The translations under genes and the position numbers were made by a program. Shown piece after piece: positions 1-20,824 of a stretch of DNA of 44,751 nucleotides. Where the stretch lies: positions 1 through 44,751 of IMG/VR virus record IMGVR_UViG_3300045988_055685. One strand, written 5' to 3'. Positions within the stretch are counted from its first letter, which is position 1, and every line of letters begins with the position of its first letter. The notes beneath the pieces were generated by a model. The model made no database searches, was not told the DNA's origin, and saw only the letters and a list, made by a program, of their open reading frames with translations. The stretch comes from a virus.

Positions 1-128
1 CGCAGCGCGTTCAGCCGCAGCGCGTTCGGCAGCCGCATGTTCAGCCGCAGCGCGTTCGGCAGCCGCATGTTCAGCCGCAGCGCGTTCGGCAGCCGCATGT
101 TCAGCCGCAGCACGTTCAGTGGCAGCAT
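1..128. repeat. Tandem 30-bp repeat GTTCAGCCGCAGCGCGTTCGGCAGCCGCAT, 3 exact copies plus 1 degenerate; encodes (AAAERAAAEH)n on the minus strand
   Basis: Read directly: units at 9-38, 39-68, 69-98, degenerate 99-128. The same repeat recurs at 44665-44751. Confidence 0.95.
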
Positions 129-798
129 GATCCGACAATAGCAGCCCTGCCCCGAAAATGGTTTTCCCGTTTTCCCTCTGTGCGTCCAGCGCGGATATTT
201 GTATGCAGTCTTTTCTCCACACCTTAAAATCGATACCGTATTTACTGTACCTCTGCATCATTGCCGCAGTCACAACATGATCAGGATAGTCGTATTTCGG
301 CAGCGTCCGCACCTTTTCTTTCCGCAGTTCTTCGACCACGCTATTAACAGCCGCGCCCAATGTCGGCGCCGTCTGCATTACAACATCATCGCCGAGATTT
401 GTCACAAATGCCGTTTGGACGATTGCGCCGTTCTCGTACTCAATTCCTGCATTGCAAATAATATGATTCATCCGCATGCAGACCTTTTTGCCTGATAGAG
501 CAGTAAGCGACGGTGCAAACAGAAAAAATGAGATCTCCTTGTCGAGATAAAACTCGCATATCTTCACCAAAATAGAAAACGGCGGATTGTCCAGCACAAC
601 ACATCCGTCCGGATACGCGAATTTTTCATAGTCCCCGCCCGGCCAAAAAGGCCTGACAATCGTCTTCGGATCGATGTTGTATTCTGCGCACGCCCAGTCT
701 TTTACCGCATCATATACAAGTGGCGGCGTGTAACAGTCATCTGTTGTTTTCTTCGGTTTGAACTTTTCTATAAATTCTTCATACGTCTTGCTTTTCAT
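1..798 (-). CDS. DNA N6-adenine (or N4-cytosine) methyltransferase, N-terminal 266 codons; ORF runs off the window start and continues at 44751..44608
   Basis: My own translation from ATG 798-796 (RBS GGAGGAAAC): MKSKTYEEFIEKFKPKKTTDDCYTPPLVYDAVKDW...GCVVLDNPPFSILVKICEF... It carries an NPPF (D/N-PP-Y/F) catalytic motif. No stop occurs before position 1, and the frame enters the AAAERAAAEH repeat. This ORF is not in the supplied track because it is open at the edge. Confidence 0.65.
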   Translation of the reverse strand, partial: MKSKTYEEFIEKFKPKKTTDDCYTPPLVYDAVKDWACAEYNIDPKTIVRPFWPGGDYEKFAYPDGCVVLDNPPFSILVKICEFYLDKEISFFLFAPSLTALSGKKVCMRMNHIICNAGIEYENGAIVQTAFVTNLGDDVVMQTAPTLGAAVNSVVEELRKEKVRTLPKYDYPDHVVTAAMMQRYSKYGIDFKVWRKDCIQISALDAQRENGKTIFGAGLLLSDHAATERAAAEHAAAERAAAEHAAAERAAAEHAAAERAAAERAA

Positions 799-810
799 GT
801 TTCCTCCAAA

Positions 811-842
811 GCAAAAGCACCCTCGATTGAGAGTGCTTTTTT
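811..842 (-). terminator. Intrinsic terminator hairpin (bidirectional shape) ending the upstream non-coding transcript, just before the methyltransferase RBS
   Basis: Minus strand reads AAAAAAGCACTCTCAATCGAGGGTGCTTTTGCTTTGG: a GC stem followed by a T-run. Confidence 0.55.
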
Positions 843-903
843 ATTCGGGCAACTTCTCACCCGCACGACTGGTAAAGTGGTCTATTTCGACCAGTTTAGA
901 TTT

Positions 904-961
904 TGGGGACAGCCGGAATCGAACCGGCGCGCATCCGCTGTTGTGCTTTCCCAATGTCCCC
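904..961 (-). ncRNA. tRNA-like minihelix (acceptor stem plus T-arm, no anticodon arm)
   Basis: Minus strand reads GGGGACA-TTGGGAAAGCACAACAGCGGATGCGC-GCCGG-TTCGATT-CCGGC-TGTCCCC-A. It has a perfect 7-bp acceptor stem and a canonical T stem-loop. Only 26 nt lie where the D and anticodon arms (~41 nt) would be. No CCA is encoded. Confidence 0.6.
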
Positions 962-1477
962 ATATACCCGCTTATCGCGGGTATCGCCTGCCCTGCACAC
1001 ACTACGCTAAGGAAAGGGATTTTCACCTCTCTTTGGCATGTAATTTACAGGCACATACATGGTGCGTGCTGCGCAGGTGCAGGCTTCTTCTCTTATGCGA
1101 GCTATCGCGCCGCATACGTCCGGCTGTCGGAGGGGAGCTGCCCCGCACCTCCCAGCTTCGCCAACGAATAGGAGGCGTTCCACACTGGGAGCTTCACATG
1201 TGATCGCGCTTGCCCCGTGGCCTTTGGTGCTTCGGCTTTCGCCTCGCCCCGCGTGGGCGAAGATCAGAAACAGTTTGCCCCGCCGCCATCATTCAGGCTT
1301 AGGGACGTATCCCCGCGTCCCCTACGTCAGTACCCCGCGTGGAACGCAGGGCTTCGGGGATCGCAGGGCGGTGCTTGTAATTCTGTCTTGTGCTGGCACA
1401 AGGCGTATAAGTCAGCACCGGATTGCTTGTTCTACCCCGCTGCCCTCGTGCGGGCTTAGGGACGTATGGTGCGCGGA

Positions 1478-1507: not shown

Positions 1508-1709
1508 TAAAAGTCGTGATTTAATCGAAAACCAAACCAAATACACATTTTTTCATAGAATAAAGTATCGATTTCCGCGCGCGTAAGATTTCATCTGATA
1601 TGCAGGCGAGTATTCCACCACCGCATATCCTACAAATTAAATGCCGTCTCTTCCGGCTGCCAAGGCTGGTTTTCATAGCCTCCACGTCCGCAAACGTGAG
1701 CCTCTATTC

Positions 1710-1784
1710 TGGAGCACCGCACGAGACTTGAACTCGCCCGCCCAGCTTGGAAGGCTGGTATGCTTCCGACTACATCAGCGGTGC
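1710..1784 (-). tRNA. tRNA-Gly (anticodon UCC), CCA encoded
   Basis: Hand-folded 75 nt: GCACCGC TG ATGT AGTCGGAA GCAT A CCAGC CTTCCAA GCTGG GCGG GCGAG TTCAAGT CTCGT GCGGTGC T CCA. All four stems pair, and the discriminator is U. Confidence 0.85.
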
Positions 1785-1908
1785 ATATTGCCCGAATGAC
1801 CCGTCGGGCGCGGGAAAAACTATGGCTCCCCCTCTGCCTCATGCAGCTTCGGGGGCATATCCCGCCCAGCACCGGCCGGACGGGTAGAAATGGAGGAAAA
1901 CATGGATT

Positions 1909-2373
1909 TCAGGCTTTTGTACTTTTATCCATTACCATTATAGCACATATACTATTAGTATTTATTAGCATATTTTCAACTTCTCGTAATGCTTTAGGAT
2001 GAAGCACCTTAGTCACATGTGCAAATGAATAATGCATACATTCCGCCACTTCATTCCATGTTTTACCGTTTATATAATACTCAGTTAGCAAAGTCGCACA
2101 GGCATTATCTTCTATCTTGCCAACCACCTGCAAAATCTCTGCCCTGATTTCATTCAGCTTATCAAGCTGCTCGTCTACAACCGCACTTGCAACAGCATAT
2201 CCCGCTATCTTATCATCAGGCGCGCCCGAGCTTCCCGAGGGCGGCGTTTCGTGCGGCCGAACGGTAATTGACACTGCCCTGTCGTAAATGCGCGCCTTGG
2301 CCTCCTGCAAGGCTTCTATGCGCTTCTCCATATTGCGCGCCCGCATCAGCCATTCTTTCGCAGTCACTCCCAT
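1909..2373 (-). CDS. Putative late-gene transcriptional activator (sigma-70 region-4-like HTH; ArpU/RinA/DUF1492-type position)
   Basis: The C-terminal segment LLTEYYINGKTWNEVAECMHYSFAHVTKVLHPKALREVENML looks like sigma region 4. It is the last gene before the packaging region. The true start may be GTG at 2367. Confidence 0.5.
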   Translation of the reverse strand: MGVTAKEWLMRARNMEKRIEALQEAKARIYDRAVSITVRPHETPPSGSSGAPDDKIAGYAVASAVVDEQLDKLNEIRAEILQVVGKIEDNACATLLTEYYINGKTWNEVAECMHYSFAHVTKVLHPKALREVENMLINTNSICAIMVMDKSTKA

Positions 2374-18448: not shown

Positions 18449-18473
18449 AGTGTGTCACTTGATGTGTCACCTA
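18449..18473 (+). repeat. GTGTCAC doublet, right copy
   Basis: AGTGTGTCACTTGATGTGTCACCTA. Confidence 0.5.
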
Positions 18474-18475
18474 TT

Positions 18476-18503
18476 AAAAAAGGGGGCGGTTTCCCGCCCC
18501 CTC
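18476..18503 (-). terminator. Intrinsic terminator of the cargo operon
   Basis: Minus strand reads GGGGGCGG gaaa CCGCCCCC TTTTTT. Confidence 0.7.
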
Positions 18504-18506
18504 TGT

Positions 18507-19217
18507 TCAATGCTTCACAACGTACTCGTAATATGCAGAGAGCTTGTCGCTTACCGCATCCTTGTCATCAAGCCACGCCTTTGCCATATCGGCATAGAAG
18601 TCGATCTTGTTTACGCCATGCTTCTTGAATACCTCGCAGAAATCCGAGTAGAGCATGTTAAGCGCGGCATAAAACTCAGCAGGCTCGCATTGGATACCAT
18701 GCTGACGCATGACCTGTTCTGCCTGCTCCATCGTCCAGTGAGCGCCGGTTGTCCCGTCCTCATTCTTCATGCGCCGCGTCCAATCCTCTGCGGTCTGGCG
18801 GTCCATCTTCCCAACGCCTCGCATCATTTGTGCATGGCCCATCATGCGCCCATTCCCGCCGCGAAGTTCATCGCCTACATAAGAGCCGCCGTGCATATCC
18901 ATCCGATCATCACGAAACCCAATCGGCTGCATATAATCGTCCTCCTCATACATAGGGTAATGATAGACCGGCGGGATGTAGCCGCCTGGATATCTGCTTC
19001 TCGGCGCAAACCGTCCGTCAGAGTACCGGCGGTATCCACGGTCATACGGCTCCATCATTTCGGAGCGCGGGGCGAATCGCCCGTCGTCGTAGTGTTCGCG
19101 GCCGCGACGGTCGCGGAATTTGTCCTCCACATAATCGCGCGGGTAATCCTCGTATTCTACGCCGATCCTGCGGCGGCCACGACCGGAAAGCATCATCATC
19201 TTTGCAGTGCGCGTCAT
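18507..19217 (-). CDS. Hypothetical protein; R/D/Y-rich repeat N-terminus (DGRFAPRS x2) plus globular C-terminal domain
   Basis: Track ORF. A plus-strand 358-aa ORF overlaps it and is judged to be an antisense shadow. Confidence 0.55.
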   Translation of the reverse strand: MTRTAKMMMLSGRGRRRIGVEYEDYPRDYVEDKFRDRRGREHYDDGRFAPRSEMMEPYDRGYRRYSDGRFAPRSRYPGGYIPPVYHYPMYEEDDYMQPIGFRDDRMDMHGGSYVGDELRGGNGRMMGHAQMMRGVGKMDRQTAEDWTRRMKNEDGTTGAHWTMEQAEQVMRQHGIQCEPAEFYAALNMLYSDFCEVFKKHGVNKIDFYADMAKAWLDDKDAVSDKLSAYYEYVVKH

Positions 19218-19627
19218 TTGCTCACCGCCCCTCTGGTCGCGGGTGCGGGAGCGGCACCGCCGTCAATGCTGGCAAGGTTGTTGCTGGGTGCGCAGCAGGG
19301 ATTGCCCAGCATCCGGAACGAGCCGCCGGTCGCAGACGTGGAAACACAGGTCGCGTACCGTGTGCGGGTGCGGATGCCGGCCGCTGTTACCTGCGCACAG
19401 TTGCGCTTGGTCAGCGGATACAGCGTCGTACCCGTGCCGATGGTGATATACACCGGCGCGTTGATCGTGGCCGTGTCGGGGATTGCCTGCGCTACAACAA
19501 TGCAGTATTTCTCGCCGTTGTTATAGCTGCCGGCCGGAAGATTGATCTCCAGATTGCCGCCCGTGAACGTCACCGCCTGCGAGATCACCAGATTGGGGCA
19601 CAGCTTACATACAGGTTTGCAAGACAT
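19214..19627 (-). CDS. Hypothetical Cys-containing protein (137 aa)
   Basis: Start MSCKPVCKLCPN behind GGAGGTAGAATT. Confidence 0.55.
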   Translation of the reverse strand: MSCKPVCKLCPNLVISQAVTFTGGNLEINLPAGSYNNGEKYCIVVAQAIPDTATINAPVYITIGTGTTLYPLTKRNCAQVTAAGIRTRTRYATCVSTSATGGSFRMLGNPCCAPSNNLASIDGGAAPAPATRGAVSK

Positions 19628-19700
19628 AATTCTACCTCCAAAAATCAAGGGCGGCAGACTATTGCCCGCCGCCCGAAGTTATCACGGCGAATGCCGGAAA

Positions 19701-20450
19701 TCAGCAGCCACAGCCATAGCCGGAGCCGCAGAACGGATACGGCGCGGGGACCTGATAAGCCGGTACCGGCATCGGGTTGATGCGACGGATCAGCTCATTG
19801 GTCTGCGCGTCCAGCGTTGCGGTCAAGTAGCTGTTCTGGTTGGCCTGCGAAGCCGCCAGCTTGAGCGCCTGATTCTCGGACTGCAGCGAATCGATCTTGG
19901 ACTGTACCATGAAGTCCATCAGGCCGCGGTAGTTAGCGTTGGCGTTGTCGATGATGTCACGGGTCGAGTTCTGGATCGTGTTGCGGGTGTCGCAAGCCTG
20001 CGTCGCCATGTCATAGCGCACGCCCTGGATCGCGTTCTGGGTCTGGCAGCAGCAGTCCTGCAGATTGTAGCCAAGCTGGCACAGGGACTTGTCCACACCG
20101 TTAAAGCCCTGCAGCATTGCAACGTTGGTGCTGTTAAAGCCGCCGGTAACCGCGTTGTTCAGCGCATAGGTGGAATCGCAAATGCCCTGCTGGATTGCGG
20201 AAATGCCGCGCTCAAGGCCGTTGAATGCAATCGCCTCGTTTACATCGGCGCGGGTCGCAATGCCCTGCAGGCCAGGATCAGTGGACGCGCCGCCGCCGAA
20301 ACCGCCGAAGCCAAAGCCGCCGCGACCCCAGCCGAAAATCATGGCAAAGAGGATAATGGCCCACCAGCCATCACCGCCCCACATGCCGTTGCCGGAATTG
20401 TTACCGCTGTCCGAACCGAGCGCATAACCGGTTGCGAAATCGTTATCCAT
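19701..20450 (-). CDS. Hypothetical membrane protein: Gly/Trp-rich N-terminus with TM, N/Q-rich coiled region, CGSGYGCGC tail
   Basis: MWGGDGWWAIILFAMIFGWGRGGFGFGGFGGG... and a C-terminal PFCGSGYGCGC. Confidence 0.55.
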   Translation of the reverse strand: MDNDFATGYALGSDSGNNSGNGMWGGDGWWAIILFAMIFGWGRGGFGFGGFGGGASTDPGLQGIATRADVNEAIAFNGLERGISAIQQGICDSTYALNNAVTGGFNSTNVAMLQGFNGVDKSLCQLGYNLQDCCCQTQNAIQGVRYDMATQACDTRNTIQNSTRDIIDNANANYRGLMDFMVQSKIDSLQSENQALKLAASQANQNSYLTATLDAQTNELIRRINPMPVPAYQVPAPYPFCGSGYGCGC

Positions 20451-20578
20451 ATTAAATTTTCTCCTTTTCGTGTATTTACATCGGGGCCGTACGCTCCCCT
20501 GATGTTCAATGGGAAGCGGTTTTTTATCAGGAACCGAGTAAACCGAAAAAGAGATAGATTTTCAGAGGTATCTCTGTC

Positions 20579-20824
20579 TTATTTGAAAAGCTGGTTTGCC
20601 TGCCGCATGAACTGTTGCGGGTCTACGCCTGCCTCTTTCAGCATGTTCATTGCCGCCTGCTGGGGATTGCCGCCCTGCATGATCTGCCGCATCTGCGGAT
20701 TGCTCTGCGCCATCTGCTGCAGCGCCTGTTGCGGGGTCATGCCGCTGTTTTTCATCTGCATGATCTGGGCGACCATCGGGTTATTTGCCGTCAGCCCCTG
20801 CATGAGCATTTGAGCCATGTTCAT
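20579..20824 (-). CDS. Hypothetical Met/Gln-rich repeat protein (81 aa)
   Basis: RBS AGGAGGG lies 7 nt before the ATG. Sequence: MNMAQMLMQGLTANNPMVAQIMQMKNSGMTPQQALQQMAQSNPQMRQIMQGGNPQQAAMNML. Confidence 0.5.
   Translation of the reverse strand: MNMAQMLMQGLTANNPMVAQIMQMKNSGMTPQQALQQMAQSNPQMRQIMQGGNPQQAAMNMLKEAGVDPQQFMRQANQLFK

Follow-up and report, generated by a model that had tools for sequence, protein, structure and literature searches.

Morons are inserts of promoter, cargo and terminator lodged in the late operons of phages. Among the large non-coding RNAs, GOLLD combines a universally conserved 3' region with a less conserved 5' region and carries tRNAs in the linker (bioRxiv 10.1101/2024.12.08.627333). 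On a smaller scale, DUF3800-VIII belongs to a set of eleven orphan motifs first discovered in the vicinity of DUF3800 genes, for which no function was proposed (Weinberg et al. 2017, PMC5737381), and the skipping-rope, drum and DUF3800 motifs have been grouped via their neighbouring genes (PMC5737381). The DUF3800 domain itself has been reported as RNase-H-like and linked to defence systems. Here we describe a non-coding island of ~1.1 kb, from about 1904 to 811 on the minus strand of IMG/VR virus record IMGVR_UViG_3300045988_055685, the whole 44,751 nucleotides (nt) of which are referred to below as the window. A first-pass annotation had marked out 811-1472, between a tRNA-Gly and a supposed methyltransferase, as one large structured RNA. 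The real unit is larger: it starts at ~1904, upstream of the tRNA-Gly, which it includes, and 811-1472 is its downstream 60%. With slightly more confidence than doubt, we read 811-1472 as part of a ~1.1-kb late-gene leader, a chain of separable RNA cassettes that collects cargo and would be processed at tRNA-like elements.

The components of the island, in their 5' to 3' order on the minus strand and followed by the two flanking genes, are:

1789-1904, minus strand: module A, the island start, with a CCUCC-containing 5' end, a GC hairpin (hpA), copy 1 of a repeated hairpin (H; 1860-1828) and a further hairpin (hpB) that terminates in AAUAU directly before the tRNA-Gly
1784-1710, minus strand: tRNA-Gly(UCC), filling slot 1 (ARAGORN; Rfam tRNA, 51.6 bits)
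1629-1709, minus strand: module X, a conserved spacer, 99-100% identical in related loci L124, L126 and L132
1590-1628, minus strand: E-mini hairpin (AUAUGCGG...CCUGCAUAU), from its fold (-11.2 kcal/mol) and alignment to L001
1476-1589, minus strand: AT-rich spacer (GC 0.43), 95% conserved in L126 and L132, holding the candidate promoter 1507-1478
1433-1475 (core 1467-1435), minus strand: hairpin H copy 2, from the repeat, the fold and the H-pattern scan
1373-1432, minus strand: module S, a hairpin domain closed by 7 base pairs (bp), from the module map
1307-1372, minus strand: DUF3800-VIII RNA motif (RF03075), 57.7 bits
1274-1312 (core 1310-1278), minus strand: hairpin H copy 3, from the repeat and the module map
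1085-1273, minus strand: C5w, a variable hairpin block, from the module map
962-1084, minus strand: C3, a constant 125-nt branched domain ending in the hairpin AUACCCGC-GAUAA-GCGGGUAU plus AU
901-961, minus strand: tRNA-like minihelix of 58 nt, filling slot 2 (fold -26.2 kcal/mol)
843-900, minus strand: spacer with two small hairpins (CUGGU...ACCAG; CGGG...CCCG), read from the sequence; L001 is short of 27 nt here
811-842, minus strand: intrinsic terminator, a few bases upstream of the GGAGG ribosome-binding site (RBS) of the next gene
1909-2373, minus strand: upstream gene, a late-type transcriptional regulator (PHROG 36 'transcriptional regulator', E=1e-15), given as context only
1-798, minus strand: downstream gene, the 'methyltransferase' of the earlier annotation (PHROG 21498, no assigned function), outside the island and given as context only

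Set beside the systems above, the island is like GOLLD and ROOL in lying in a phage next to tRNAs, and like GOLLD in joining a conserved 3' part (C3) to a variable 5' part (C5) and a linked tRNA. Unlike them, it has no Rfam match to such a family, its conserved part is just 125 nt long, its modules are separable and in relatives interrupted by genes, and its C3 is so far without supporting pair covariation; the likeness to GOLLD is an architectural resemblance, not membership. It shares with phage tRNA islands and morons the habit of sitting as accessory, variably present cargo between conserved genes, includes bona fide tRNAs, and, in phages where it lies between terL and the portal gene, is bounded like a moron by a promoter-like site and a terminator. 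Its difference from morons is that the cargo is almost wholly structured non-coding RNA and that the sub-cassettes are delimited by a repeated hairpin.

The island region is biologically real, non-coding and structured, and much of what had first been noticed about 811-1472 stands. The region is GC-rich (0.53-0.64 vs about 0.47-0.50 nearby), and both of its strands fold far better than shuffled sequence (z about -6), the minus strand of the 662 nt reaching a minimum free energy (MFE) of -289.8 kcal/mol with z=-6.15. The claim that no plausible coding frame exists also survives: none of the open reading frames (ORFs) overlapping 811-1472 has a Pfam match, variable columns in the C3 alignment are spread over codon positions without periodicity (8/8/5, p=0.65), indels of 1-2 nt in that alignment disrupt every frame, and ORFs over the island span module junctions that vary between loci. 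An antisense ORF of 175 amino acids (aa) has as its only database relatives 15 ORF calls from this non-coding locus, all of them unnamed and free of Pfam matches, which cover 23-100% of the query. Also present is a minus-strand ORF of 54 aa at 1521-1685 (51 aa from an ATG at 1676, with GGAGG 2 nt upstream), which spans X, E-mini and the AT spacer, has just its first 12 codons (MKTSLGSRKRRH) in common with Dulem virus 33 and is probably not a gene.

The orientations of the tRNA-Gly, DUF3800-VIII and the tRNA-like elements show that the minus strand is the sense strand. Where at least seven minus-strand RCGGGG motifs had been counted, 811-1472 holds exactly seven, with none on the plus strand, against an expectation of 0.69 +/- 0.82 from dinucleotide shuffles (0 of 2000 shuffles reach seven); all seven motifs and all three copies of H lie on the same strand.

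One cassette belongs to a described family. The match to RF03075 at 1372-1307 reaches 57.7 bits, with the gathering score set at 40.2 (whole-window E=2.3e-8), and covers model positions 1-64 of 64; all helices are paired in the cmscan alignment except the four outermost pairs, in which it departs from the model, and one internal pair. It has the model's invariant core CCGAAGCCCUGCGUUCCACGCGGGGUA...GUAGG, 9-bp apical helix, UUCCA loop and paired lower stem. The same motif occurs in the islands of L122, L123, L127, L135, L140 and L143 (48.6-62.2 bits), with C-to-U changes in L122 and L123 that retain pairing as G-U. Its 27-nt core is found exactly in 34 IMG/VR contigs of another phage group as a stand-alone hairpin; across these unrelated phages the core is invariant, and the lower stem differs in sequence and stays complementary. 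A pair count from MAFFT was dropped, a 1-nt bulge shifting the register between island and stand-alone types, and cmscan alignments were used instead. Module S goes with DUF3800-VIII in every island copy examined, and the two together fold at -55.2 kcal/mol (z=-4.7).

The island copy is unlike the stand-alone ones in its surroundings: it shares the interval between two H hairpins with module S and has no A-run and U-run flanks of the terminator-like kind. Stand-alone copies (L081-L114, for instance L085 and L088) have such flanks and look like bidirectional terminators; many lie upstream of a Gln/Pro-rich ORF of 172 aa, and some near a holin-like ORF of 113 aa or a cell-wall-peptidase-like ORF of 137 aa, both judged by eye. 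The association that named the motif is missing as well, for there is no DUF3800 (PF12686) gene among the window's 30 largest ORFs in a Pfam search. A divergent island in Dulem virus 33 carries instead a skipping-rope RNA (RF02924; 53.8 bits vs a gathering score of 36.7), to which the window itself has no match, just downstream of module X (L145 1730-1799, minus strand, or about 37.2-37.3 kb in PP511792.1); in the window, S plus DUF3800-VIII is placed further along than this site. The presence of two members of the skipping-rope, drum and DUF3800 group in islands of one kind, without a DUF3800 annotation in the complete Dulem virus 33 genome, is the most useful new contextual fact to come from the comparison. 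Two other curated phage RNA motifs turned up in relatives, namely int-alpA RNA (RF02996, 56.8 bits) at L119 3617-3684 and GP20-b RNA (RF03003, 60.5 bits) at L152 6557-6617.

Beyond these, the Rfam search was empty. At the gathering score only DUF3800-VIII and tRNA pass in the window; ROOL, GOLLD, HEARO, raiA, RNase P and 6S give no match at that score or, on 700-2000, at E<=10, and tmRNA lies below its gathering score, just the two ends of its model aligning at E<=10 (961-901). The suggestion of a divergent member of the ROOL/GOLLD type finds no support in these searches. The earlier statement that the region could not be assigned to a known class holds for large RNA families and does not hold for 1307-1372, which matches a curated one. 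Weak matches to Plastid-ycf2, Phe leader, SNORA55, SR6 and GRIK4 lie far below their gathering scores and were set aside as chance.

The modular anatomy emerges from relatives. These were reached through the regulator gene (L115, L117), through exact-pattern scans (L119, L122, L123, L125) and, by the richest route, through a spurious antisense ORF used as a protein query, followed by the contigs encoding its matches; a generic H-hairpin pattern added the recombinant L152 and the divergent islands L153 and L156. A blastn search of INPHARED gave a single 72-nt match, module X (window 1641-1712, 90% identical) in Dulem virus 33. Defined modules were blasted against all loci, and the resulting map covers about 27 of them. 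The order is that of a simple grammar. Module A comes first, followed by slot 1 (tRNA-Gly, an element called E1, or nothing) and then by X, E-mini, the AT spacer and H2 (copy 2 of H), the place of which may be taken by an E2 element with or without genes, or by nothing. The second half consists of an optional S with DUF3800-VIII, H3 (copy 3), a C5 block (of w, b, c or short type), C3, slot 2 and the terminator. At least 12 module combinations with sharp, reused boundaries are seen, and the presence of S with DUF3800-VIII, of the C5 block, of the tRNA-Gly and of the AT-rich segment varies independently from locus to locus.

Such islands sit in several backbones, between the regulator and terS or a methyltransferase-like gene, between terL and the portal gene, and in others. 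Module A is 92-99% identical in nearly all related loci, with divergent versions that show compensatory stem changes in L153, L156 and Dulem virus 33. L153 and L156 lie directly upstream of terS and retain the hairpin-plus-H start, L153 additionally keeping E1, a tRNA-Met and the same terminator; H3, C5, C3 and DUF3800-VIII are absent from both. What survives in the divergent island of Dulem virus 33 is H, X and counterparts of A and E2. In some loci the cassettes are separated by protein genes, a 77-aa ORF in L119 and L125 and a pair of ORFs in L115. By eye, this pair (L115 3957-4843, reverse strand) resembles a MazF/PemK-type toxin (113 aa) and a DUF4065/Panacea-type antitoxin (196 aa), and the locus evidently accepts protein cargo too. 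Because the modules are independent, genes intervene (L115, L119, L125) and divergent islands are reduced, one obligatory fold of ~650 nt is excluded, and the single ornate RNA first proposed for 811-1472 is not supported; the minimal unit is about 225 nt. As judged from the compared loci, cassettes have been gained, lost and swapped between phages, partly by recombination inside the H repeats.

Elements shaped like tRNAs occupy both slots. The reported tRNA-Gly beside the region is real (UCC anticodon, 1784-1710), and relatives have in its place an 84-nt tRNA-like E1 or an empty slot. In slot 2, the minihelix 961-901 consists of a 7-bp acceptor stem, a small hairpin and the T-arm GCCGG-UUCGAUU-CCGGC. 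It stacks its acceptor on a canonical T-arm (UUCGAUU) in the manner of acceptor/T-arm minihelices, the tRNA-like domain of tmRNA and mascRNA-type elements, and like tRNA punctuation elements it fills the slot of real tRNAs in relatives: tRNA-Met(CAU) in L115, L117, L119, L127 and L132, an odd tRNA of 42-45 bits in L123, L125, L126 and L143, an odd Leu-like element in L135 and a tRNA-like element of 25 bits in L138. Unlike a tRNA, it has neither D arm nor anticodon arm and encodes no CCA; ARAGORN detects only the tRNA-Gly in the window, and Rfam gives no tRNA match at 901-961. It differs from tmRNA, whose model aligns at 21.7 bits vs a gathering score of 47 and by its ends only, in having 23 nt in place of 328 (about 330) between those ends, no tag ORF and no ARAGORN tmRNA call. 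Nor is it a deletion derivative of the tRNA-Met or the Arg-like tRNA of relatives, an origin we considered and rejected, since its acceptor and T stems differ from both.

A tRNA-shaped element abuts C3 without a gap in all loci with C3. Acceptor and T stems of the slot-2 elements are 100% paired, 10 of 12 pairs change on both sides and 0 of 500 shuffles match; the alignment rows are excerpts of paralogous tRNA-type elements with the stems cut out, so that the result shows that the minihelix retains the acceptor/T fold of a tRNA and nothing more. Read directly from the loci, a junction of hairpin-AUAU or hairpin-AUAC followed by G precedes the tRNA-Gly, E1, the slot-2 elements and the H copies.

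Two further elements have features of this kind. E1 (L126 3402-3485; also in L001, L115, L117 and L125) occupies the tRNA-Gly slot, is recognised by neither ARAGORN nor Rfam, and combines an acceptor-like stem of 6 bp with a T-arm-like hairpin whose CUCACUA loop is conserved; a divergent copy lies in L153 (about 1882-1948 in reverse-complement coordinates), and both stems show compensatory changes between L126 and L153. E2 is an element of 105-270 nt, of which E-mini (1590-1628) is a vestige left by internal deletion. It lies at L125 956-1150, L115 3732-3923, L119 about 45-310 and L001 about 2290-2515, often upstream of a 77-aa ORF, and has no Rfam match. Its interior is variable; an 8-bp closing stem AUAUGCGG/CCGCAUAU, replaced in Dulem virus 33 by a compensatory UGUGCGG/CCGCACA, stands beside a T-arm-like hairpin GUGAGG-UGCAAAU-CCUCAC, and its 5' part GGCGGAAUAGAC resembles the GGAUUCGAC stretch of tmRNA.

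Such a series invites the explanation that the island is a decaying array of tRNA genes with recombination debris, functionless and held in a permissive gap between operons. A descent can indeed be laid out in the slots, from a canonical tRNA at 54.7 bits, by way of odd tRNAs at 42-45 and 25 bits, to a minihelix without an anticodon arm, with E-mini as a deletion remnant alongside; the high identity among copies means that purifying selection cannot be shown; and among 80 loci homologous by the downstream gene, the island was found in L001 and 0 others, 78 of the 80 having no island upstream. We nevertheless consider decay unlikely. Debris would not be expected to maintain order and orientation through at least 12 arrangements in several backbones, nor to keep the 27-nt core of DUF3800-VIII invariant across unrelated phages while its lower stem covaries, the loop and spacing of H constant while its inner stem changes, and the acceptor and T stems of the slot elements perfectly paired.

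The repeat itself was correctly noticed as a duplicated module: a 33-nt sequence at 1278-1310 and 1435-1467, 85% identical, to which we add a weaker third copy at 1828-1860. It forms a two-step hairpin with the fixed spacing YCCC-N7-GCAYGAG-N6-GGGG, and a scan of the window with this pattern finds three copies, all in the island and all on the minus strand. Across loci, the GCAYGAG loop is constant and the inner stem varies (GCCY/GGGC, CGGC/GCCG, CGCU/GGCG and CUGC/GCAG, read directly). H3 lies at the 5' end of the C block in nearly every related locus that has one; in L126 and L132-L134 an H2 copy takes its position, and in L152 a chimera of H1 and H3 stands where everything between the two copies has been deleted, which marks the H repeats as recombination points. 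The only feature common to all islands, divergent ones included, is H, in most cases preceded by a GC hairpin and AUAU. In Dulem virus 33 one copy of H lies immediately before the RBS of a gene.

At the other end of the island, the terminator proposed at 811-842 proves to be a hairpin with arms 813-824 and 829-840 (12 nt, 92% complementary, 4-nt loop) that is present in the MFE fold and followed on the minus strand by the U-rich tail UUUUGCUUU. A consensus scanner did not list it, probably because an A/U extension of the stem consumes the tail. It is 99% conserved in relatives with the same T module (L135, L140), and has equivalents in L123, L126 and L153; in all contexts examined, the next late gene follows immediately. 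As it lies a few bases before the RBS of that gene, late transcription must read through it. The promoter proposed at 1507-1478 fared less well and was not found by the consensus scan; in the terL-portal phages, a promoter-like TTGCAA-17-TAAAAT precedes module A.

These observations also suit a purely cis-acting role in late expression or packaging, in which H and the GC hairpin would be nut- or put-like sites for a read-through factor and the remaining cassettes passengers, or, in a variant, H copies would be DNA sites for the late regulator or the terminase. H and its preceding hairpin are shared by all islands (L153, L156 and Dulem virus 33 among them), always upstream of terS or late genes; the island follows directly on a late-type regulator gene; and the position of the terminator and the H copy before an RBS in Dulem virus 33 fit as well. 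We rate this below decay and consider it improbable: no antiterminator protein was identified, the coupling of C3 to tRNAs and the recognised small-RNA motifs would be left unexplained, and the terL-portal islands, with their own promoter and terminator, look like independent units. An SPP1-type portal and a Terminase_3 large terminase, moreover, suggest headful packaging, for which no separate upstream cos-like site is expected.

The C3 and C5 blocks contrast in their constancy. C3 (1084-962) is represented by 14 distinct variants at 88-96% identity, for which RNAalifold gives a branched consensus with 97.7% of cells paired, several one-sided changes being absorbed by G-U. C5w is in relatives replaced by the unrelated C5b or C5c or shrunk to about 100 nt, and the C5 of L138 is a recombinant with a w-type first half and a b-type second half. 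Minimal units pass from H3 to C3 in about 100 nt, which makes C5w, the largest piece of the region, dispensable; the whole minimal unit from H3 to C3 measures about 225 nt. A stretch of 9 nt can pair without mismatch between GCGUUCCAC, in the invariant apex of DUF3800-VIII, and GUGGAACGC in C5w (1333-1347 and 1175-1189); short and c-type C5 blocks present GGAACGC in a hairpin loop in place of the latter; the complementarity could represent a loop-loop contact.

A single large RNA of a new GOLLD/ROOL-like class, with a variable 5' half, a conserved C3 and tRNAs embedded or attached, would accommodate the exceptional predicted stability (z=-6.15), the phage context next to tRNAs, the GOLLD-like constancy of C3 beside variable 5' blocks and the possible long-range pairings 1106-1121/1460-1475 (16 nt, 88%) and 1175-1189/1333-1347 (15 nt, 87%), and is nonetheless the least probable of these explanations, given modules lost and gained independently, genes that split A and E from H3-C3 in L115, L119 and L125, minimal H3-C3 units of about 225 nt, pairing partners missing in many relatives, no large-RNA Rfam match even at E<=10, and the islands of L153 and L156 without C3, C5 or DUF3800-VIII.

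The reading we favour, a late-gene leader composed of separable cassettes, draws on properties of processing enzymes. Minihelices of acceptor and T-arm suffice as substrates for RNase P, RNase Z and the CCA-adding enzyme, and RNase P prefers U at -1 and G at +1. The island would be transcribed as a polycistronic precursor, here as part of the transcript of the regulator gene and in the terL-portal phages from its own promoter of sigma-70 type. RNase P and RNase Z would cut at the tRNA and the tRNA-like elements, each of which is preceded by ...AUAU with G next, releasing the tRNA-Gly along with a number of stable small structured RNAs, among them the DUF3800-VIII hairpin and an H3-C5-C3 RNA of about 350 nt. 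Transcripts of the island alone would end at the terminator, and read-through would feed the late genes.

Several results weigh against this reading. The plus strand of the same 662 nt folds as well as the minus strand (z=-6.10), and with nearly equal z on both strands folding energy does not pick the sense strand. No promoter lies directly upstream of the island, the sole minus-strand promoter-like site being at 1979-1951, inside the regulator gene. In the fold of C3, whose variants are 88-96% identical, not one pair is altered on both sides, and shuffles perform equally well in 374 of 500 cases; copies of C3 and C5 are 88-100% identical, and the predicted structure of C3 is compatible with the data, selection on that structure being unproven. 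A covariance model of C3 run over 702 kb of other phage loci recovered the window only and no divergent homologue, and neither the C3 pattern nor the DUF3800-VIII core has an exact match in 185,579 species-representative genomes, which leaves a narrow group of phages from gut metagenomes as the only known source of the element; a metagenome scan with the C3 pattern gave 2 matches only. Transcription, processing sites and RNA stability are matters that we infer from the sequence.

A bolder proposal goes beyond the cassette leader. H3-C5-C3 might constitute a new modular class of phage RNA whose 3' end is made by RNase P at the attached tRNA or tRNA mimic, for which MALAT1 and mascRNA, where RNase P cleaves at an attached tRNA-like element, offer a parallel, and the interchangeable cassettes of the island (DUF3800-VIII, skipping-rope and the tRNA look-alikes E1 and the minihelix) might serve as decoys or antidotes against host defences. 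We regard this as doubtful. The targets, speculatively, would be RNA- or tRNA-targeting host defences such as DUF3800 RNase-H-like proteins, an idea that arises only because DUF3800 has been reported as RNase-H-like and defence-linked.

The genome around the island is that of a temperate phage of siphovirus type (~44.7 kb). A profile search of its ORFs identifies an integrase and a CI-like repressor, together with a Terminase_3 large terminase, an SPP1-type portal and a CHAP lysin. Its nearest terminase relatives are human-faecal phages and a Blautia phage, which points to a phage of human-gut Clostridia type, in keeping with the first impression, and narrows the host no further. On the minus strand, the regulator (2373-1909) is followed by ~1.1 kb without a credible gene and then by an ORF running from 798 to beyond position 1. 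This downstream ORF belongs to no Pfam or NCBIfam family, and its PHROG is function-less, so the methyltransferase label is not borne out. In L140 the order is regulator, island, methyltransferase-like gene, a terS-sized ORF of 129 aa and the next gene, which places the region at the early/late boundary, between the PHROG 36 regulator and the late and packaging genes, as had been proposed.

Some smaller observations complete the picture. The 3' end of the downstream ORF (window 1-140), which runs past the window start, holds at least three copies of the 30-nt tandem repeat tcagccgcagcgcgttcggcagccgcatgt; these encode an Ala/Glu/Arg-rich repeat that attracts spurious NCBIfam matches. Beside the integrase lie two adjoining plus-strand ORFs, 18450-19526 (358 aa) and 19542-20813 (423 aa), with no Pfam or PHROG match, at a location typical of cargo expressed in lysogeny, for example defence genes. 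Within module X, a terminator-like hairpin on the plus strand (1653-1669, with a TTTTCAT tail), conserved in L126, could stop antisense transcription. The 5' end of module A (CAUGUUUUCCUCCA, 1890-1904) is an anti-Shine-Dalgarno-like sequence, able to pair at 13 of 14 positions with the region where translation of the downstream gene starts (UGGAGGAAACAUG, 799-813); this could be a generic coincidence of ribosome-binding sites, and CCUCC is found again near 1168 and 1128. Between the island and the remainder of the phage genome there is no complementarity of at least 12 nt that would suggest an antisense target. Integron attC sites, group I or II introns, retrons, CRISPR and omega-RNA were considered and rejected, there being no associated protein and no model match.

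What the island offers is, first, a context for RNA motifs that have been orphans since 2017: two of them, of DUF3800 type and skipping-rope, are placed as interchangeable cargo of one phage locus beside tRNAs and tRNA mimics. It further documents H as a repeated hairpin that marks cassette borders and acts as a recombination point, and C3 as a constant RNA domain always fused to a tRNA-shaped element, reminiscent of the linkage of GOLLD to tRNAs and of 3'-end processing mediated by tRNAs. Should the parts prove to be debris, the locus would still be a clear example of the modular assembly of phage non-coding regions; should the decoy or antidote proposal be true, it would provide the first functional context for the orphan DUF3800 and skipping-rope motifs. 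The function of these motifs can be approached in a concrete system, a temperate gut phage in which each cassette is present in some natural variants and missing from others, among them deletion variants of the L135 type (no C5 block) and the L001 type (no DUF3800-VIII).

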